Positions 3,477-50,713 of a DNA stretch of 51,765 nt are shown one piece after another. Below the pieces are notes generated by a model that was given only the letters and a program-made list of their open reading frames with translations, did no database searches and was not told where the DNA came from. The translations under genes were made by a program, and so were the position numbers. The stretch is from Pseudomonadota bacterium (GTDB lineage: Bacteria; UBA10199; 2-02-FULL-44-16; JBDRGF01): positions 1-51,765 of the forward strand of contig JBDRGF010000165.1 in NCBI GenBank assembly GCA_043818055.1, written 5' to 3'. How positions within the stretch are numbered: position 1 is the stretch's first letter; each line of letters opens with the position of its first letter.

Positions 3477-3525
3477 GCACATTTTCAGTCGTCTTGTGAG
3501 AATCACAAGACGACTGAAAATGTGC
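3477..3525. terminator. Perfect 23-bp hairpin overlapping the tRNA 3' end
   Basis: gcacattttcagtcgtcttgtga-gaa-tcacaagacgactgaaaatgtgc; terminator role is assumed. Confidence 0.5.
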
Positions 3526-3604
3526 GAGGGAGGGGACTTGAACCCCTATCCGTTTCCGGACCAGATCCTAAGTCTGGCGCGTCTGCCAGTTCCGCCACCC
3601 TCGC
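3523..3604 (-). tRNA. tRNA-Leu (anticodon TAG), CCA not encoded
   Basis: Minus strand GCGAGGG TGGCGGAACTGGCAGACGC GCCAGA CTTAGGA TCTGG...GGTTCAAGTCC CCTCCCTCGC A; long variable arm; usual position upstream of tig. Confidence 0.95.
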
Positions 3605-34690: not shown

Positions 34691-36784
34691 TCATCCGGAA
34701 CTGCGTTGTAATATAGCTATCCCAGCCTGATATGTGATAAAGGTGATAACATAGGCCAGGAACGTCAACCCGAAGAATTGCAGCGCAGAGAACTTCCATG
34801 AACCGGCCTCCCGTCGCACAACGGCGCAAGTCGCCATGCAGGGAGTGGCGATGAGCGCGAAAATCATGATGCAGATGCCTATCAGAGGGGAATATTCATC
34901 CCGCAATTTTTGTCGCAAGGTCGATGTACTGTGTTTCGCATCCCCTATCGACTGGACGATTCCCATCTGGGAGACGAAGACCTCCTTGGCCGCGAATGAT
35001 CCCAAAAAGGCTGTGACTATCTTCCAGTCGAAGCCGAGAGGTTTGAAGGCAGGTTCCAGGAAATTTCCGATCCTGCCCGCGTACGAATATTTTAAGTTTT
35101 CCTCCGTCATCTGAACCTTATCGGAATTTACAAGCTGATCGATCTCGAAAATATTTTTCTTGGGATAACTCGTCAAAAACCACATGATCATCGAAACAGC
35201 CAATATTATAGTGCCTGCTTTTTTCAGATAGAGTTTCCCCCTCTCCCACATATGGATAAACAGGCCTTTAAGCGTTGGCAGACGATAGGGTGGGAGCTCC
35301 ATGACAAAGGGGGTAGATGTCCCTTTGAACTTTGCAACATGTATGATCTTCATGATGAGAATAGCGAGCAGAATGCCTATGGCATAGATAATCCAAAGCA
35401 CTCGACCACGCCACTCCACAGGAAAAAAGGCGGGTATGATCAGCATATAGATTGGAAGTCTCGCCCCGCAACTCATGAGAGGCAATATCAACATCGTGAG
35501 CAGGCGGTCTCTTCTATGTTCGAGCGTGCGTGTCGCCATCACGGCTGGGACCGTGCAACCAAATCCTATCACCATCGGGATGAAGCTCTTCCCGTGAAGT
35601 CCGATCTTGTGCATCAGCTTATCCATTATAAATGCCGCCCTTGACATGTAACCTGTGTCTTCAAGCAGCGAAAGTCCTAAGAAAAGCAGAAGGATGTTGG
35701 GAAGAAAGACGATCACGCCTCCCACCCCTCCGATGATGCCATCGACTATCAGCGACTTCAGCCATGTGAGATTATTCGCTGGCCAGTTGTTTGATATGAC
35801 AGCCCCAAGCAAGTTGAATCCCGATTCGATCCAATTCATGGGATGCTCGCCAATTGTGAATGTTAGCTGGAAGAGAAGATATGTGACGACTAAAAAGATC
35901 GGAAATCCGATTATCCTACTTGTGACGATATCGTCGATCCTGTCAGAAAAATCCCTGCTATCGACGGCATGAGACTTAGCCGCCTCACGAAAAAGGCCTG
36001 CCGCAAAGCCATAGCGGTAAGCAGCGAAAATATCAAAGAGGCTCTCACCGTGATGAGATTCGATCTCACCCCTTCTTTTTGTTGCATAATTTACTACCTC
36101 GTCACCCTCCGGATGATTTTTTCGAACGAGAGCTGCTATCTCAGATTCACCCTGAGCAAGGCGGGCAACAAAAAATCTTTTCGGAAGCCCTTTGAAAAAG
36201 CCACTATCACCCTGTTCCAACCTTTGTTCCAGATCGTCGATGAACTGGTTGAACTCAGCCCCGTAATCTACCCTGATCTCCTCAGCAACTTTTGAATAAG
36301 CCTGTATGATCGCATCCTTTAACTCAGCAATTCCCTTTCCACGCGATGCCACAGTCTCAATCACCTCCGACCTCAGTCGAGCGGATAAGATTTTAAGATC
36401 GATTTCCTGTCCGAGCTTTTGCGCACGATCGCTCATGTTGAGGACAACGACAAGCTTCACACCCATTTCAACCAGATGAGAAGTCAGATAGAAATTTCTC
36501 TCAAGATTTGAAGAGTCGACGACATCGATGATGACGTCGGGACGTTCGAACAGGATGAAATCCCCTGCGACCTTTTCGTCGAGAGAACGTGCAGAGAGGC
36601 TATAGGTTCCGGGAAGATCGACCAATTCGATTTCAAAACCATCATGAACAAAGCTGCCGCTTCTCTTCTCTACGGTCACGCCGGGATAATTCCCAACGTG
36701 CTGATGAGCCCCGACAAGCTCGTTGAAGATGGATGTCTTTCCGGAATTGGGGTTGCCAGCAAGGGCAACGCGAATTTTCTTCAT
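34691..36784 (-). CDS. feoB: Ferrous iron transport protein B
   Basis: GNPNSGKT, VGNYPGVTVE, DLPGTYSL, LEDTGYMSR, GFGCTVPA, MSCGARLP, MELPPY, AKEV. Confidence 0.97.
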   Translation of the reverse strand: MKKIRVALAGNPNSGKTSIFNELVGAHQHVGNYPGVTVEKRSGSFVHDGFEIELVDLPGTYSLSARSLDEKVAGDFILFERPDVIIDVVDSSNLERNFYLTSHLVEMGVKLVVVLNMSDRAQKLGQEIDLKILSARLRSEVIETVASRGKGIAELKDAIIQAYSKVAEEIRVDYGAEFNQFIDDLEQRLEQGDSGFFKGLPKRFFVARLAQGESEIAALVRKNHPEGDEVVNYATKRRGEIESHHGESLFDIFAAYRYGFAAGLFREAAKSHAVDSRDFSDRIDDIVTSRIIGFPIFLVVTYLLFQLTFTIGEHPMNWIESGFNLLGAVISNNWPANNLTWLKSLIVDGIIGGVGGVIVFLPNILLLFLGLSLLEDTGYMSRAAFIMDKLMHKIGLHGKSFIPMVIGFGCTVPAVMATRTLEHRRDRLLTMLILPLMSCGARLPIYMLIIPAFFPVEWRGRVLWIIYAIGILLAILIMKIIHVAKFKGTSTPFVMELPPYRLPTLKGLFIHMWERGKLYLKKAGTIILAVSMIMWFLTSYPKKNIFEIDQLVNSDKVQMTEENLKYSYAGRIGNFLEPAFKPLGFDWKIVTAFLGSFAAKEVFVSQMGIVQSIGDAKHSTSTLRQKLRDEYSPLIGICIMIFALIATPCMATCAVVRREAGSWKFSALQFFGLTFLAYVITFITYQAGIAILQRSSG

Positions 36785-37095
36785 AAAGCATTCCCCCTCC
36801 TACGCCGCATGAATCTACGAATTCTATTTCTCCATCCACGACGACAATTGTTGCAGCGTTCGACTCGCTCTACTTCGATACACTTCGCTTCACTCCTTCT
36901 GATCGAAAGACTGTTGCCTCTTATCCTTATTTCGATCGGATCTGTGAGAGGTGCCTCACGCTTCAGATGAATGCAGACTCCCGGAACGACCCCCATTTCA
37001 ATCAGGCGTCCTCTCAGAGCAGAGGCTTTCAATCCTTTAATTACAGCCTTATCCCCGGGGTTGAGTTCATCAAGGGTCATGATATCCGATGTCAT
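36781..37095 (-). CDS. feoA: Ferrous iron transport protein A
   Basis: RLIEMGVVPG, APLTDPIEI, LSIRRSEA; ATGA overlaps with both neighbours. Confidence 0.92.
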   Translation of the reverse strand: MTSDIMTLDELNPGDKAVIKGLKASALRGRLIEMGVVPGVCIHLKREAPLTDPIEIRIRGNSLSIRRSEAKCIEVERVERCNNCRRGWRNRIRRFMRRRRGNAL

Positions 37096-37484
37096 AACTT
37101 TATCTCTCCACAATCGACGCGAGTACAGAATTTCTTCATGGCATCTATCGTCTCTCTGCTGAGTTCATGTTCAACTATGCACGCATCCCTGTCGGCAATC
37201 TGGAGCTCAACCCCCAACAACTCGTTGAAAAATTTTCTGAGCACGTGATGGCGCCTTGCAAGGTTGGCAGCTCTAGTCATACCCTTGTCGGTGAGGGTCA
37301 GGTAATCGTAGCGATTATAATCTACCATCCCCAGATTTTTGAGCTTGATGAGTGCGGCTGTGACGGATGGCATCTTCACACTCTTCTTCGATGCGATATC
37401 GCGCACGCGCACGGCGTTCATCCCCTCCCCCTGCAGTTCGAATATCACTTCCAGATAATCCTCAAGGCTTGCAGAAATATCCAT
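37092..37484 (-). CDS. DtxR/MntR-family metal-dependent regulator
   Basis: SLEDYLEVI, RVRDIA...VKMPSVT, RRH, ACIVEH. Confidence 0.93.
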   Translation of the reverse strand: MDISASLEDYLEVIFELQGEGMNAVRVRDIASKKSVKMPSVTAALIKLKNLGMVDYNRYDYLTLTDKGMTRAANLARRHHVLRKFFNELLGVELQIADRDACIVEHELSRETIDAMKKFCTRVDCGEIKL

Positions 37485-38082: not shown

Positions 38083-39174
38083 TTAGGCGTACTGCGGAAA
38101 GAGTTTTTTAAGAACAGGGAGCGTCACTTTTCCATCTTTTACCTGCAAACCCAGTTTCAAAGCCGGATCATCTGCGAGCGCTTTCTCGATACCTTTATTG
38201 GCCAGCTCTTTCAGATATGTAAAGGTAGCAGAGGTCAATGCCTCCGTTGAAGTCCTTGGGGTGAGGGCTGGCATGTTGGGGACGCAGTAGTGAATCACAC
38301 CATGCTCTTTGTAAATCGGCTCCTCGTGAGATGTCGGACGGGATGTCTCGATGCAGCCACCCTGATCGATTGAGACGTCGACGACCACGGAGTCGGGCTC
38401 CATCGTCTTTACCATCTCCCGCGTGACAACGTGCGGGGCACGATCGCCATATATGAGGACAGCGCCGATGAGAAGATCGGCCTTTTTTACCCACTCGGCA
38501 ACGCTTTGAGGTGTTGATTTTACAATTTTAATTTTTCCATCATATTCCTGATATAGTTCGTCCATACGCTTTTCATCAATATCCAGCAGAATGACGTTGG
38601 CCTTCAAACCCACAGCAACATCCATTGCATTGACACCGACAACTCCACCACCGATTACAACAACTGTTCCACGCTGCGTGCCTGTGACCCCTCCAAGGAG
38701 AACTCCCTTACCGCCATGATTTTTATGCAAAAGATATGTTCCAACCTGAGTCGCGATCTTTCCGGCAACCTCGCTCATGGGAAACAACAATGGCAGATGG
38801 CCATCCGCCGTCTCGACGGTCTCGTAGCCGATCCCCATAACACCACTCTTGCACATCGCATCGACGAGCTCAGGAACACTCGCTAGATGAAGATATGTAT
38901 AGATGCATAAATCTGACCTGAAATATTTATACTCGCTCTTCAAAGGCTCCTTCACCTTAACGATCAGCTCAGAGCCCTTCCAAACCTCGTCGGCCTTTTC
39001 TACAATCTTCGCACCAGCCTTGATATAATCTTCGTCGGAATATGCAGTCATTAGACCTGCCGATTTTTCAACGAGAAGCGTATGCCCCTCCTTCACCAAT
39101 TCTTTAATTCCAGCGGGGGTAACAGATACGCGTGATTCTTTTGTTTTGATCTCCTTAGGAATGCCTATTATCAT
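38083..39174 (-). CDS. ald: Alanine dehydrogenase
   Basis: MIIGIPKEIK..ESRV, KVKEP, YLHLA, PMSEVAG, GGGVVG, DQGGC, HYCVPNMP; RBS AAGGAG. Confidence 0.97.
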   Translation of the reverse strand: MIIGIPKEIKTKESRVSVTPAGIKELVKEGHTLLVEKSAGLMTAYSDEDYIKAGAKIVEKADEVWKGSELIVKVKEPLKSEYKYFRSDLCIYTYLHLASVPELVDAMCKSGVMGIGYETVETADGHLPLLFPMSEVAGKIATQVGTYLLHKNHGGKGVLLGGVTGTQRGTVVVIGGGVVGVNAMDVAVGLKANVILLDIDEKRMDELYQEYDGKIKIVKSTPQSVAEWVKKADLLIGAVLIYGDRAPHVVTREMVKTMEPDSVVVDVSIDQGGCIETSRPTSHEEPIYKEHGVIHYCVPNMPALTPRTSTEALTSATFTYLKELANKGIEKALADDPALKLGLQVKDGKVTLPVLKKLFPQYA

Positions 39175-39309
39175 ATCTATCTCCTTCTCTGATTGAAACT
39201 GTGCACTTCTATTATTTATCGAAAATTTAGTCAAAGAATAAAGCAATAAACAATTAACAATGGCCAATTAACAATTTTATAAGGATATCCTTATGAATTT
39301 AGAGAGAGT

Positions 39310-39656
39310 TGCTGATATTTGGCTTCGCTTTAGTTGCGCAAGCTCGCCTTCCCATCTCTTGGCCGACCAGTTCAGAATTGGACTTATCTATCCTTTCTGG
39401 AGCCTGTCCTGAGCATAGTCGAAGGAGCCCGATAACTCGTCTCATGCCTTACGGCGTGTTCCCTCACGAGATCACGCTGCCCTCCCAGAGTTATCTGCAG
39501 ACAACTCTGGGCCACGTGCCATCAAGCATCGCTTTTGACTCCTATAAACCCTCAAGCCCGAGCTTCGGGTGGCGAACTTCGGAATCGTCCTACCACCGGG
39601 GATTCTTGCCCTTTTCCCTCCTTTCTCCTACGTTAAAAGAAATCTGCCTCGCACAC
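39310..39656 (-). mobile_element. Group II intron 5' fragment (domain I, class C-like); no RT ORF or domain V
   Basis: Minus strand starts GTGTGCGAGGCA; has GGGCAAGAATCCCC, a CTC-GTGA-GGG GNRA loop and the Id3-like GGCGAGCTTGC-GCAAC-TAAAGCGAAGCC; putative EBS1 is complementary to the 5' flank GTTGC; left boundary approximate. Confidence 0.7.
39399..39429. repeat. Short REP-like insert with 6-bp duplication
   Basis: ggagcc-tgtcctgagcatagtcgaa-ggagcc. Confidence 0.6.
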
Positions 39657-39684
39657 GCAACTTTTTGTCGGTATACGCCGATAA
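39657..39684 (+). promoter_or_regulatory. GCAAC-N15-GCCGATAA motif
   Basis: Perfect sigma28-type -10; upstream of 39752. Confidence 0.65.
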
Positions 39685-39751
39685 CAATACGATTGTTGAA
39701 AATTCCCCGTGGTTTCCAAGGGTACTTCAATGAATAAAAAGGAGACAGTTT

Positions 39752-41935
39752 ATGGCAGGGGTTGGTGTTTTTAAACTCAGCACGCTGAAATTTTTACAGC
39801 ATGGACCAACGGATGCGATGAATCGCTTTCTCGGTCAAGCGGGAAAGCTATCCTCTGTGCTGATTCAAAGTGATCCTCAATTGATCAATGATCGAAATTT
39901 TGCAATGGCCAACGGTTTTTTCTCAAGCCCAATGGCAAAGGCGGATTTCGTTCGAGAGAGAGTGCCGCCGCAACAGTTTGTTTCCATGGCTAATTCGCTG
40001 CTCGATGTTTTGAAGAAGAGCAGTGAGCAAGAGGCCCTTTCAAATATTCCTGCAGTTCGATTTTTTCAGGATATCGCAAATATACAGGAGAAGATGGCTG
40101 AGTTACCTGCTGCGGTTACCTTGTTGGGATATTCTTTGGCTGCCCCCCTTGAGGGAAGGTTTTATGAAAATGTAGTTCTGCCTTTTTCAGATGATGGGGA
40201 GAGCATCTCAATAGCTATGATCGATGCGATAATGGATCTCCAAATTGAAGGTGAAGCTATCGGTCGGAAAATGATAACCACATTTATGCGCGCCTTTACC
40301 GAGCGTGAAATCTCAGCTCTGGAAAAGGGTGCGGAATATACGGATGATCAAGAGCGAGTAGTTGAGCGTTTTTCCGTTCGATATCTTGGAGATTCTATTC
40401 CCGCCGGTGTAACATCAGAGGTTATTGCAAATGATCTCTTTGCTATCTCGCCATTCTCAGAATCTCCTCAAAACTGCACTCCAATCTACGGTATCTACTA
40501 TATGTTGGGATGTTTGAGTATTGGCGCTGAGAACATTGATATTGTGAGTGCTGATCCGAGAGCCGAGTATATGTTTCGATTTGCACCATCCGAGGATCTC
40601 CCCCGTGAATCTTCAAAAGTAATGGGTACGATGGATGTGGCTGTCCCATCATTAGGTACATCAGCAGTAGAACCAACGCCACTGTCGGATCCAAAACCTC
40701 AAAACAATGAACCATGGGAAAGGGTTCTGTTTTCACAATCATTCAAAATTAGCTGTAAAACAAAAAAATCCGGGAGTTATGATTTTTCACCACTATCGCA
40801 GGTGGCTAGGGAGATTGTTGCGCATATCAGTGAAGTATCCCATCGTCCAAATATGAGATTACGAAACATTCAGTTGGATGCTGATGAGGTTTATATTGCG
40901 CTCTCAAATGCCCATTCTCAAGTGCTGAAGTTAAAACAGCAGTGGTATATTGAAAATGGACGTTGGAGAAAACCATCTCAAGAGGGGGATAAGCTTGCAT
41001 GGAAGATCGATGCTAGAGGGCAGCTCTGGATCTTTATACATTTGACAAGTTCTTGTAACGTGGTTGTACCTTTCGACTTCTATAAATGGTCCTATAGCGA
41101 TGATCCGGAGAGAATCAAATATAAGATTGAGAAAAAAGATTCATGGGAAAAGGTCGAATCTGGGAAAAATCAGCAGCGAGATTTTCAGGGACACGTCTAT
41201 GCACGTCTTTCAGCACATTTTCAAACATCGGAACAGCGATGCGATGAGAAGCCAGTGATGATCAAATCACCAACACCTGTAGCAAGCGATATGTCGGATG
41301 AAGGAGAGAGGAAGCATCCCGACCCCGATGAAAGGGAGGATGCCTCGGAAGTTGAGGAAGGAGCAAAAAACGAAGGCGTTGTGGATAAACAATCTATTGT
41401 TCCAAAGGATGAAAAAGCTGCAGATTTAGTTGAGCCAGCTGTTGAAGGAGAGCCAGAAGAGAAGGGTGTTGATTCTGAAGAGGTTGTCGGCTCAAAGGAT
41501 GAGGAAGCTCCAGAGATGGGTGATGAATCTAATCCCTCAGATAAAATAAGGAGTGGCTATACACCGCCTAAAAAAGCACCGTTTCAGGAGATCACAAAGG
41601 CCAAGTTTAGAGCAGGAGCAACAAAAATAGTTAGTCGATTGTCTAAAGCGTTGAGAGCTGAATTTGGCGCTAATGCCGTTGAAGATAGGAATGTGGAGCA
41701 ATCAGTCTCCCTTTTCCTTTTAAATGCAGTTGGAAACACAAATAAAAAACAGGTCGATCGTCTCTCATGTGAAGGAAAATTTCGTTTTGGATTAAACAAT
41801 GATCAGCGCTTTTTTGAAGCTCAGTTAAAGATGGGTAAGAATGTGCGTATTATTAAAGCGCCTATAATTGTCGAAGAAGAGGGTGATGGACATACTAAGA
41901 GAGTGCGGATCAGTTTTGGTGAGATTGAGAAGTAG
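39752..41935 (+). CDS. Large hypothetical protein with acidic linker
   Basis: 727-aa ORF, AAGGAG RBS; modules resembling those of the downstream protein. Confidence 0.8.
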   Translation: MAGVGVFKLSTLKFLQHGPTDAMNRFLGQAGKLSSVLIQSDPQLINDRNFAMANGFFSSPMAKADFVRERVPPQQFVSMANSLLDVLKKSSEQEALSNIPAVRFFQDIANIQEKMAELPAAVTLLGYSLAAPLEGRFYENVVLPFSDDGESISIAMIDAIMDLQIEGEAIGRKMITTFMRAFTEREISALEKGAEYTDDQERVVERFSVRYLGDSIPAGVTSEVIANDLFAISPFSESPQNCTPIYGIYYMLGCLSIGAENIDIVSADPRAEYMFRFAPSEDLPRESSKVMGTMDVAVPSLGTSAVEPTPLSDPKPQNNEPWERVLFSQSFKISCKTKKSGSYDFSPLSQVAREIVAHISEVSHRPNMRLRNIQLDADEVYIALSNAHSQVLKLKQQWYIENGRWRKPSQEGDKLAWKIDARGQLWIFIHLTSSCNVVVPFDFYKWSYSDDPERIKYKIEKKDSWEKVESGKNQQRDFQGHVYARLSAHFQTSEQRCDEKPVMIKSPTPVASDMSDEGERKHPDPDEREDASEVEEGAKNEGVVDKQSIVPKDEKAADLVEPAVEGEPEEKGVDSEEVVGSKDEEAPEMGDESNPSDKIRSGYTPPKKAPFQEITKAKFRAGATKIVSRLSKALRAEFGANAVEDRNVEQSVSLFLLNAVGNTNKKQVDRLSCEGKFRFGLNNDQRFFEAQLKMGKNVRIIKAPIIVEEEGDGHTKRVRISFGEIEK

Positions 41936-48179: not shown

Positions 48180-48206
48180 TTATCGGCGAATTCGGATAAT
48201 AGTTGC
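48180..48206 (-). promoter_or_regulatory. GCAAC-N14-GCCGATAA motif
   Basis: Minus strand gcaactattatccgaattcgccgataa, 10 nt before ATG 48169. Confidence 0.65.
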
Positions 48207-48218
48207 TAAGATTATAAT

Positions 48219-48826
48219 CCACAATCCGACACTTTAAAAAAAGATGGGGGGTTTTCGTTATTTGGAGGTTAATTTTTTTTGAAAAAAACTGTAATTTTAA
48301 CCTCAAAATTATTTTTTTATCTTTTTTCTGTTCATATCACCCATATCACATACAAAAACCGGCTGATATCACATCCTCAGATAACACTTGTCCATCAAGT
48401 GTTTCCACCTCCTTCCCTGAACTCTGTTTTTTTCGTTTCTCTGTTTTTTTCTACGGCACAGCCAATGCGAATATCTTCTCCCGCGCTTCCTTATATATCC
48501 TGAAAGATGGATGACCACGGCTTAACTTCAATATGATGCTCCTCACCGTCTTTACCACCTTTCCCGCTATACACAATAACTTAAACCTCAATCGCTTCAT
48601 ATGGCAGTGCTTTAGGAAGATTCCTCTTATTTCCTTCGTCGGAATCAGGACTTCTTTTCTCTATCAACGACTGAAGAGCACGATCCCCCTGCAACATCTG
48701 TACATCTTCCATGTGTTCCCCGCCGGATACTACGATACCGATTATCGCCTCGATCAGCTCGTTCTCACTCCAACCCGCCTCTTTTACCCTCACATGCTTT
48801 CTTATCAGCCTGGGTAGCTTGAGTTT
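48219..48826 (-). mobile_element. Degraded IS1380-family element (internally deleted transposase and putative right end)
   Basis: KLKLPRLIRKHVRVKEAGWS...GGEHMEDV..L..D fused to C-terminal KRLRFKLLCIAGKVVKT..(stop 48451); matches the IS at the window end; terminal ccacaatccgacactt also occurs at 5500-5515. Confidence 0.75.
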
Positions 48827-49507: not shown

Positions 49508-49704
49508 TCCCTCACGAGATCACGCTGCCCTCCCAGAGTTATCTGCAGACAACTCTGGGCCACGTGCCATCAAGCATCGCTTTTGACTCCTATAAACCCT
49601 CAAGCCCGGGCTTCGGGTGGTGAATTTCGGAATTCTCCCACCATCGGGGATTCTTGCCCTTTTCTCCCCTTTCTCCTATGTTAAAAGAAATGTGCCTCGC
49701 ACAC
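49508..49704 (-). mobile_element. Second, shorter group II intron 5' fragment
   Basis: 49508-49709 aligns ungapped to 39460-39661 (11 mismatches in 202 bp by eye); same GTTGC|GTGTG junction. Confidence 0.7.
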
Positions 49705-49731
49705 GCAACAAACTTGAGATTTAGCCGATAA
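49705..49731 (+). promoter_or_regulatory. GCAAC-N14-GCCGATAA motif
   Basis: Upstream of 49760. Confidence 0.65.
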
Positions 49732-49759: not shown

Positions 49760-50713
49760 ATGTCGAAAATAGGAAATTTCAGAAATAAAACTAGGCCTCT
49801 GCAAATAGGTGCTCAACAGCAAATAGCTCCTCTATCTAAACCGCAAAATATGCCATCTACAAGCACGGTTCCCCCTGAACAAGGTTCTTCCCGAGGTTTC
49901 CTTATTAATCCGATCCTTCGCGGAACTTCCCAGGTCGCATCAGGTTATGAGCAGCCTATCGGTTTAACAGTTGACCTTGATTCAATTCTGGAGCGCATAC
50001 AAGCCTCAATTGAGACTGAAGTGGTCAATAATGATCCTTATGCCAGAGAGAGTAAATCAAGAGAGCTATTCGATTATTCGTTTGATGCTCTTATCTCTCG
50101 GTCAACTCAATTTCAAAAACCATGGCTCGAGTCGATAGGAGAAGCTGCGGAAAAAATTGAATTATGGATTAAAGAAACGTTAGGACTGTTAGCTAACGAC
50201 CTTAGAATTGGATTTGTTGGCGAAAGCCTATTAGACTTTTGCCCAAATCCAGATAGACCCGCTAAAATAGATATGGTTAAAGTTCAAATTAAAACATTAA
50301 AAAACGATCTTTTAATATCATGGCTATATATTTCAATGCCAAATACGAAGTTAGAGTTATTAGAGCAATTGAGCCATAGGATCTTAGAAATAAAAAATCC
50401 TCAACAAATCTCTAAAAAAGTTTATCTCCCGTTAGATCTTGAAAGTGCAGAACGTGAAATGATGAGTATTTGTCAAAAAGTCTTGGATGAAACGCTCTCT
50501 GCAACTGAGGCAGCTAAGTACACAATAACACGCAGCAGAGAATGGAATGAAGAGGGTAAGTATATGGGACGAACACCATATACTCGAATACTTGTTTTTC
50601 TTGAAAGGGACGGATCGCGTAACGTATGGATAACATACGAAGAGAATGCTCCTTTTAATATTGATGACAAAATGTGTCGAAAACGCCTTAAAGAAATTCT
50701 AACACGAAGTTGA
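49760..50713 (+). CDS. Hypothetical protein
   Basis: 317-aa ORF, AAGGAG RBS, low-complexity S/P/Q N-terminus. Confidence 0.78.
   Translation: MSKIGNFRNKTRPLQIGAQQQIAPLSKPQNMPSTSTVPPEQGSSRGFLINPILRGTSQVASGYEQPIGLTVDLDSILERIQASIETEVVNNDPYARESKSRELFDYSFDALISRSTQFQKPWLESIGEAAEKIELWIKETLGLLANDLRIGFVGESLLDFCPNPDRPAKIDMVKVQIKTLKNDLLISWLYISMPNTKLELLEQLSHRILEIKNPQQISKKVYLPLDLESAEREMMSICQKVLDETLSATEAAKYTITRSREWNEEGKYMGRTPYTRILVFLERDGSRNVWITYEENAPFNIDDKMCRKRLKEILTRS

Follow-up and report, generated by a model that had tools for sequence, protein, structure and literature searches.

A group II intron fragment beside a promoter-like site

The window, that is, the whole stretch of 51,765 nucleotides analysed here, contains a 364-nt 5′ fragment of a group II intron on the minus strand (39293..39656), which comprises domain I minus about its last 50 nt. 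It lies between an alanine dehydrogenase gene (38083..39267, minus strand), its downstream neighbour and outside the element, and an ORF of 727 amino acids without a Pfam match (39752..41935, plus strand). Along the minus strand, TTATCGGC (39684-39677) is followed by 15 nt, then by GTTGC (39661-39657) and, from 39656, by GTGTG. On the plus strand, the same bases form GCAAC (39657..39661), a putative −35 core of the σ28 type whose antisense is IBS1, and GCCGATAA (39677..39684), by motif match a putative σ28-type −10 box. This promoter-like site points at the 727-aa ORF, which lies 95 nt past GCAAC and has an RBS-like motif.

An earlier description made from the letters of this DNA (the sequence-only reading) had proposed a domain I fragment with the junction GTTGC|GTGTG and a downstream hairpin whose loop pairs with AGTTGC. 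Junction and hairpin are where it put them, and the window has two occurrences of the junction pattern, against none in 100 shuffles. The fragment is indeed domain I, but it runs on to 39293, further than had been proposed, and lacks the end of the domain. Its 5′ splice-site consensus, GUGUG (39652..39656, minus strand), is identical to the start of all 12 intact junctions in the host genome. The hairpin is Id3 with EBS1 (39321..39348, minus strand); GCAAC in its loop, GCGCAACTA (39331-39339), pairs with exon GTTGC. Among the aligned copies its stem varies in sequence with pairing mostly retained, and the loop core GCAACT is invariant. A weak alignment of a metagenome relative (L032) to the Rfam model RF02001 places the EBS1 hairpin at the model's Id3. 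The pairing with AGTTGC exists in the window copy, where it is 6 bp long, but only the 5-bp GTTGC is a family-wide rule: at exon position −6 only 4 of the 12 copies have A and the other 8 have T, so IBS1 is restricted to these 5 bp, and the EBS1 loops of the copies on contig C14 stop pairing at GTTGC.

The remaining parts of the fragment are also on the minus strand. The α′ strand (39309..39315) covaries with α in relatives and is degenerate in the window copy. A hairpin with the invariant loop AGATAA (39380..39393) lies in the arm 5′ of Id3 and is an insertion relative to RF02001. The loop is present in all six copies that cover the region, one of which was retrieved using the motif as query, and GATAA within it complements the −10 box on the template strand, which makes it a candidate extra pairing. 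We rejected this hairpin as the κ motif, which the RF02001 alignment puts elsewhere. A short REP-like repeat of 24 nt within domain I (39403..39426) matches many places in relatives and is absent from the related copies G045, G038 and L032. A purine-rich 5′-subterminal tract (39603..39629) is found in all eight aligned 5′ ends; it is Shine-Dalgarno-like, several targets have a pyrimidine-rich RBS antisense further up the 5′ exon, and pairing between the two is conceivable.

The same intron family is represented in the window by another, shorter 5′ fragment (49508..49704, minus strand, 94.6% identity). It abuts a second occupied promoter-like site, GCAAC-N14-GCCGATAA (49705..49731, plus strand), which precedes a 317-aa ORF at 49760. 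A third promoter-like site (48180..48231, minus strand) carries no intron; its GCAAC motif is at 48206-48180, and the end of an IS1380-type element at 48219-48231 lies 12 nt upstream of GCAAC. Three orphan ORFs that follow such motifs in the window were scanned, and none matches a Pfam family. Elsewhere in the window we noted a tRNA gene (3523-3604, minus strand), which is its only Rfam match, and, at 34691-37484 (plus strand), what we take from inspection of the ORF sequences to be feoB-, feoA- and DtxR-like genes.

Scanning the fragment with the Rfam group II models, as the sequence-only reading had suggested, did not help, as no family scores. The folding energy is also unremarkable (z −1.28), and the identity of the fragment was therefore drawn from its relatives. 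It is 91% identical (39656→39293) to a copy with both ends on C14 (C14:7795-7163), and the shared bases stop at 39293. It is a dead copy: it is truncated, its α is degenerate, a repeat has been inserted into it, and it has neither domains II to VI nor a reverse transcriptase (RT). That the window holds no RT or domain V had been noted before and agrees with the ORF lists and the Rfam scan; genome-wide RT and domain V searches likewise gave no match on this contig.

Copies, relatives and class of the intron

Copies were sought by BLAST and motif search in the host genome (G000; 2.93 Mb in 166 contigs), which has 12 intact 5′ junctions of the family: two in the window (39656 and 49704), two on C14, a 12-nt stub on C18, and seven others in or close to the ends of contigs. 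As their flanks are nearly identical, the two C14 copies were counted once, giving 11 independent junctions; a further locus, L031, is a duplicate of the C14 locus and adds no independent junction. Six of the seven contig-end junctions are identical across ~130 assembled bases, which is a sign of recent spread, with the interior of these copies missing from the assembly. A matching intron 3′ end is found on four contig ends of G000. The two end families are tied together by the C14 copy (C14:7795-7163), which is 633 nt long and has both ends and an internal deletion. The overlap of contigs C156 and C4 gives a copy with a deleted RT, interrupted by an IS, in which the RT remnant on C4 is 65-66% identical. 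We considered a start two bases further on (GTGCG) and discarded it, as the C14 loops cannot then pair and the rejoined C14 site mismatches empty sites.

In the public run X3, a 2,450-nt contig spans both ends of the C14 copy with 1,293 + 337 extra letters. This implies a full intron length of ~2.1-2.2 kb, subject to the possibility of repeat-chimeric contigs, and run X1, possibly the source sample itself, likewise shows the larger joint. Run X3 is labelled RNA but is represented by contigs only, and it is therefore no evidence of transcription. No empty allele or spliced joint was found in the contigs of the four public runs.

Beyond G000, the full-length or RT-bearing relatives that the sequence-only reading had called for do exist. 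L032 comprises domain I from IC onward together with a 415-aa RT and domains V/VI; G045 has an 818-nt copy with both ends and no RT ORF, and G038 and G018 have 5′ parts. As a clear intron 5′ end is present in only 4 of 93 phylum genomes, the evidence outside G000 is thin. A protein search of the 93 genomes found no intact close RT, and an RNA model with a domain V pattern found no clear new copies beyond G018, G038 and G045. A single-protein scan of GTDB contigs gave no match, and an alignment-based scan of the same contigs gave one sister-clade locus together with distant introns. Viral contigs contained no close relative of the intron RT. A search of 301 family genomes for the sister clade returned one distant match, and the sister-clade intron itself (L049) has no 5′ end.

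The copies and relatives have the ends and helices of a group II intron. All 12 starts read GTGTG, and the 3′ ends read ...CGAT in five G000 ends, G045 and L032. Domain V, folded from the 3′ ends of G000 and G045, has a CGC triad with G•U and a bulge (neither is in the window copy), and domain VI in the G000 fold has a bulged A eight nt from the end, with the sequence ending in AT. The α–α′ helix is maintained at 7/7 pairs through compensating changes (TTGTTAG/CTAACAA, TTGTTGG/CCAACAA and TTGCTGA/TCAGCAA): G045, G018 and the multicopy C164-type α pair 7/7, G038 pairs 6/7, and the helix is degenerate in the window and C14:7795 copies. The basal stem also covaries (CGAGG/CCTTG vs CGTGG/CCACG), while EBS1 and IBS1 are complementary but invariant across copies. 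The L032 RT (415 aa, YADD) scores 365 bits against TIGR04416 (cut-off 300), and its only Pfam domains are RVT_1 and GIIM. In Rfam the gathering score was not reached: RF00029 omits the 3′ ends of the family, and the best RF02001 score is 24.6 bits (L032) vs 32; the sister-clade intron L049 comes to 38.7 on RF00029, where gathering is 40. By its RT- and domain V/VI-bearing relatives and the covariation of their helices, the window element is confirmed as a group II intron, which bears out the sequence-only reading.

The RT has at least 32 close homologues of 63-91% identity, and a sister set at ~50-54%, among the 120 matches listed. We built an RT tree, as had been proposed earlier, from a subsample of RT homologues (FastTree LG, 346 columns; 146 of 155 sequences retained after length and duplicate filters), in which the class C clade is labelled by domain V motif and not by named references. 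The close clade (support 0.999) joins its sister at 1.0 on a long branch of its own, and falls outside the group of introns with a short domain V and a CGC triad (support 1.0). By this tree, with class C labelled from the domain V motif, the intron lineage is not class C. No named class can be assigned, because the tree has no named references for F/g2-g6 or U1-U3. L049 has an AGC triad, a different EBS1, for which AGCCTT is the candidate, and a different loop at the AGATAA position; since the sister clade has AGC, the CGC triad may be convergent with class C. The RT ORF of many homologues (for example G000 C153_R, C154_R, C48_R and C95_L; P0005-P0033) extends into domain V and ends ...CSA-stop; that of the sister clade (L049) reads through the domain.

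Hallmarks of class C are a short domain V and a small domain I. Domain V of the present family is 33 nt long with a 9-bp lower stem, and domain I closes at nt 366-413. Class C introns, as described in PMC4424553, PMC8919778 and PMC7306698, insert after intrinsic terminators or in attC. The present lineage shares with them the absence of an endonuclease (En) domain, a short IBS1, the absence of a conserved IBS2, the CGC triad, little expected transcription, and the use of many unrelated sites of one functional type. It differs in an RT outside the clade, a domain I of ~370-410 nt, the 9-bp lower stem of domain V, and a target that is a promoter-like box on the template strand with no terminator-like hairpin found (none occurs at 39150-39800, and the 12 flanks share the boxes with no stem evident by eye). 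Judged by these comparisons, the lineage works like class C but is not a member of it. With the En-minus groups F/g2-g6 and U1-U2 (PMC3552965 and PMC8919778) it shares a protein of ~415 aa with RT and X domains only and a place in the tree outside class C, but it forms its own long-branch clade with a sister at 50-54% identity, in a tree without named references for those groups. About half of the g6/U1/U2 introns are reported to lie after terminators and none at promoters.

The insertion site and its putative promoter

The sequence-only reading had proposed antisense insertion exactly upstream of GCAAC. All 12 intact 5′ junctions, and those of G045 and G038, follow this rule: each of the 12 stands behind GTTGC, the antisense of GCAAC in GCAAC-N14/15-(GC)CGATAA. 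When the flanks were tabulated as that reading had advised, CGATA was found at a 14- or 15-nt spacer in 12 of 12, with the two lengths used 4 and 8 times, so that none of the 12 is without the −10-like box. The 11 distinct flanks lie ahead of different genes. G045 and G038, from host families other than that of G000, have the same type of site with the −10 box at 14-15 nt (with a G•T wobble in G038); the G018 flank is overwritten by an IS end. Of the loose ends in public runs, two flanks have the −10 core; the loose-end consensus of run X4 is without the −10 box, from two records at 0.65 agreement. A bias towards the lagging strand is not apparent: seven of the 12 copies are on the G-rich strand (vs 28/83 available), and the C60 copies occur in both orientations.

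G000 has 5,164 GCAAC sites, 119 of them with the −10 core at spacers of 14-16. Spacers of 14 and 15 nt account for 54 and 53 sites, vs 1-12 at each of the other lengths within 8-23. Among empty sites, the −10 core is found at 107 of 5152 GCAAC and at 83 of 645 that are intergenic. Its share rises as the intergenic site is extended, from 76/387 for GCAACW and 49/151 for A|GCAACW to 56/107 for GCAACWWWW and 24/29 for TA|GCAACWWWW (26/62 genome-wide for the last). The probability of 11/11 is accordingly 3e-19 against all GCAAC, 2e-8 against intergenic GCAACW and 4e-6 against intergenic A|GCAACW, and is 0.12 against intergenic TA|GCAACWWWW, the only null of the series that was not exceeded. PWM-matched nulls gave P from 3e-13 to 0.07, with the strictest settings at 0.02-0.07. 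Because the −10 core accompanies 24/29 intergenic TA|GCAACWWWW sites, a requirement for the −10 box is inseparable from the −35 context. The location rule is certain; dependence on the −10 box is not.

The sequence around the box follows the same pattern. Exon positions −6 to −10 are A/T-rich at occupied sites. Although the introns are nearly identical, positions −7 to −13 of their 12 sites are unconserved, which leaves no canonical IBS2. In G000 all five 3′ exons begin with TA, and the 3′ exon of L032 starts with G. TA is also the most frequent context of empty sites, preceding GCAAC at 34/83 empty promoter-like sites vs 284/5045 other sites.

The GCAAC motif looks like a σ28-type promoter, on the evidence of gene orientation, presence throughout the phylum and a FliA-like σ factor in the host. 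A codirectional ORF begins within 250 nt of 71/83 empty intergenic sites vs 191/562 controls, using a crude ORF caller that missed the 727-aa window gene; when an RBS was required, the counts were 7/12 occupied, 59/83 empty and 170/562 control sites. The motif is present in all 65 phylum genomes that are at least 90% complete, with 4-85 matches vs 0-3 for the reversed control. Across the phylum it takes the form GCAAC-N15-17-CCGATAA, and our literature search found no description of this −35 variant. In Table 2 of PMC4183435, E. coli FliA sites, including TCAAC-type −35 variants, have a −10 box and spacing in register with the motif; in this register the splice site falls immediately 5′ of the base that opens the −35 box.

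Among the four σ70-family proteins of G000, one best matches FliA/WhiG (138.6 bits vs a TIGR02479 cut-off of 189.6), and many of its homologues are named FliA by JGI; the homologue names hint at a candidate lineage of deltaproteobacteria. Its gene lies among YscJ-, SctN- and FliP-family genes in a type III secretion cluster on C90 (L138, 675-14026), and a GCAAC...GCCGATAA motif is found upstream of the first gene of that cluster. Most likely, the motif is read by this single FliA/WhiG-like σ of the host. The three orphan ORFs of the window may belong to its regulon.

The sequence-only reading had also held that insertion leaves the promoter intact. At occupied sites the −35 core, the spacer, the −10 box and the gene are indeed contiguous, but the upstream YTA and A/T tracts are displaced, being moved ~2.1 kb off, with CAC in their place (the dinucleotide AC precedes 15/83 empty sites). 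We infer that promoter activity is kept after insertion.

DNA transposons also use these sites. An IS1380-type family (DDE_Tnp_1_4) ends 12 nt upstream of the −35 box (GCAAC/ACAAC) at 9 of 15 assessable ends. On C18 an element of this type is inserted 12 nt into an intron copy, the remainder of which is probably on C155, and its offset from GCAAC equals that at intron-free sites. If the IS1380-type element depends on promoter recognition, the occupied C18 promoter would still be recognised. This element and its short derivatives occur at window 48219-48231 and on G000 C16, C17, C18, C20, C28, C33, C155 and C162 (L241). Our literature search found no promoter-linked targeting by IS1380. A second IS family abuts the box at four sites, a third repeated end does so at one, and 23/119 strict sites carry some mobile-element end. 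The second family, with ends TTAACCGGCC, crosses the YTA|GCAAC junction, apparently duplicating ~5 bp; it is on G000 C30, C56, C126 and C154 and seven other contig ends, and in G018 (L242), beside DDE_5 and DUF6788 ORFs. These promoter-like sites appear to be a point of convergence for mobile elements that are unrelated to one another.

Recognition of the site

How could an intron with so short a guide find these sites? The intron lies on the promoter template strand, antisense to the gene and at offset 0 from the −35 core, and its EBS1, GCAAC, is a copy of that core; there is no conserved IBS2 and no En domain. A second cue would be needed, because 5 bp cannot select ~100 of ~5,200 sites. With moderate confidence we favour a mechanism in which the RNP reverse-splices into the single-stranded template strand and is guided by a further promoter cue, located distally in the 5′ exon. 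The fragment would then be a remnant from a lineage of group II introns that lack an endonuclease and are specialised on GCAAC-N14/15-GCCGATAA of the host phylum. Reverse splicing would take place probably at the replication fork, as for other En-minus introns, and the second cue would be the −10 box, read in antisense around positions −21 to −28 of the 5′ exon. Its most likely reader would be the RT protein, with an RNA loop or bound σ/RNA polymerase as alternatives; the two spacer lengths (4 and 8 copies) are awkward for a rigid direct readout. The intron would thereby have a safe haven at many sites, equivalent on the promoter side to the terminator targeting of class C. The explanations weighed below overlap partly with this one as to the nature of the second cue.

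The chief competitor, which we regard as possible but the less probable account, is that an extended −35 element (A/T tract + GTTGC | TA) is recognised by itself, with genic insertions purged and the −10 box a passenger. The high frequency of the −10 core at intergenic TA|GCAACWWWW sites (24/29) speaks for this, both spacer lengths occur, and exon −6 to −10 is A/T-rich when occupied. Once the assumption of purging is dropped, however, the relevant frequency is the genome-wide 26/62, against which 11/11 has P=7e-5. The G-starting 3′ exon of L032 suggests that TA may be dispensable, and the looser null (56/107) then gives P=8e-4. The mixed A/T tract of the element would also have to be read, and the RNA shows no evident reader for it.

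It is rather unlikely that the RNP is instead tethered by a σ28-like RNA polymerase, or uses DNA opened by it, with EBS1 fixing only the bond. Such an arrangement would fit the mobile-element ends described above (9/15 IS1380-type ends at 12 nt, the second IS at four sites, element ends at 23/119 sites) and a spacer tolerance that matches that of a σ. It has a precedent in the TnGBS/p-MULT transposases (PMC3942029). According to that source, TnGBS/ISLre2 (p-MULT3) and ISKra4 insert 13-17 bp upstream of σA promoters, for which a protein-protein cue was proposed. Because they insert in one orientation and at a constant distance ahead of a −35 box, TnGBS/ISLre2 are the closest functional analogue of the present intron, which, unlike the TnGBS DDE transposases, is an RNA-guided retroelement with the −35 sequence as guide, an offset of 0 and σ28-type promoters as targets. 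From general knowledge of promoter complexes, two points speak against tethering. The splice site, at the edge of the −35 box, is outside the region that is normally melted, and a bound σ would cover IBS1.

Reading of both boxes by the RNA, EBS1 with −35 and the AGATAA loop with TTATC of the −10 template in a displaced EBS2-like pairing, seems doubtful. The loop is invariant in 6/6 copies, in a domain ID arm 5′ of Id3, and L049 differs both in this loop and in EBS1; GATAA is present at 12/12 occupied sites. In IIA introns, EBS2 forms a terminal loop (PMC8643678). But GATAA is also present at 72/83 empty sites, one new flank has GATAC, and covariation is impossible because all targets are alike. 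The comparison covers ~4 lineages, in which neighbouring bases are equally conserved. Scarcely less doubtful is the wider proposal that the ribozyme is an RNA-guided promoter reader, pairing both boxes through EBS1 and the AGATAA loop over the 14-15 nt spacer and so parasitising an alternative-σ regulon. If two-box reading were true, the parasitised regulon would be that of type III secretion and orphan genes, with DNA transposons sharing the sites.

We think it very improbable that the bipartite motif is some other protein-binding or structural site and not a promoter. GCAAC is unlike the enterobacterial −35 consensus TAAA(G), and the σ falls under its family cut-off, but the exact σ28-type −10 box and the spacing are in the FliA register (PMC4183435), and the motif is oriented towards genes and is phylum-wide. 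Chance, or one old insertion multiplied by duplication or assembly artefact, might be suspected from the near-identical C14 flanks and the seven junctions at or near contig ends, but can practically be dismissed given 11 distinct flanks before different genes and the same rule in G045, G038 and public runs.

The target is unlike those described for other group II introns. The IIB1/CL1 introns Avi.groEL and EcKTE56.groEL (PMC12584367) target start or stop codons on the sense strand, are En-plus, use a single site and have EBS2. The present intron is antisense, En-minus and multi-site, and has a 5′ tract of ~30 nt vs their 300-700. Unlike IIB introns (classes D/E/F), it has no EBS2-IBS2 pairing just upstream of IBS1. 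In the parts available, PMC4424553 distinguishes three kinds of target for these introns in bacteria (homing site, terminator and attC), PMC8919778 has no occurrence of 'promoter', and PMC7306698 uses the word for Ty3 only. No promoter-targeting group II intron was found in the literature searched, which consisted of main texts, few of them from subscription journals, and included parts of PMC8632793 and PMC3753933. Promoter targeting is thus a landing rule that we have not found described for group II introns; it would add a further rule beside homing site, terminator, attC and the start/stop-codon specialists. Yeast Ty elements insert upstream of promoters, and the present intron would be a parallel among bacterial retroelements. 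How specificity arises from a 5-bp guide without EBS2 or a hairpin is a puzzle whose answer bears on targetron design. In addition, the insertions would locate with single-base precision the −35 edge of a σ28-like promoter that is found throughout the phylum, an uncultured lineage, and is apparently undescribed.

Two candidate partners for the family were rejected. A complete class C-type intron, L001 (C30:1-1900), with a 467-aa RT and further ends on C23 and C126, belongs to another family and lies behind a terminator-like hairpin. Six domain V/VI ends followed by ACAA fit five GTGCGCCAGG starts in REP-like repeats instead. The latter form a second multicopy group II family (5 starts, 6 ends), which appears to insert in REP-like hairpin repeats at GGATG|ACAA; its 5′ ends are C162_L, C29_R, C56_L, C62_R and C96_R and its 3′ ends L003-L008, with starts and ends tentatively paired by their flanks. 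Finally, L002 (1036-2571, on C109) encodes a 511-aa RT with YRDD that is unlike group II RTs and lies beside a 288-aa gene; it is possibly a defence-type RT.
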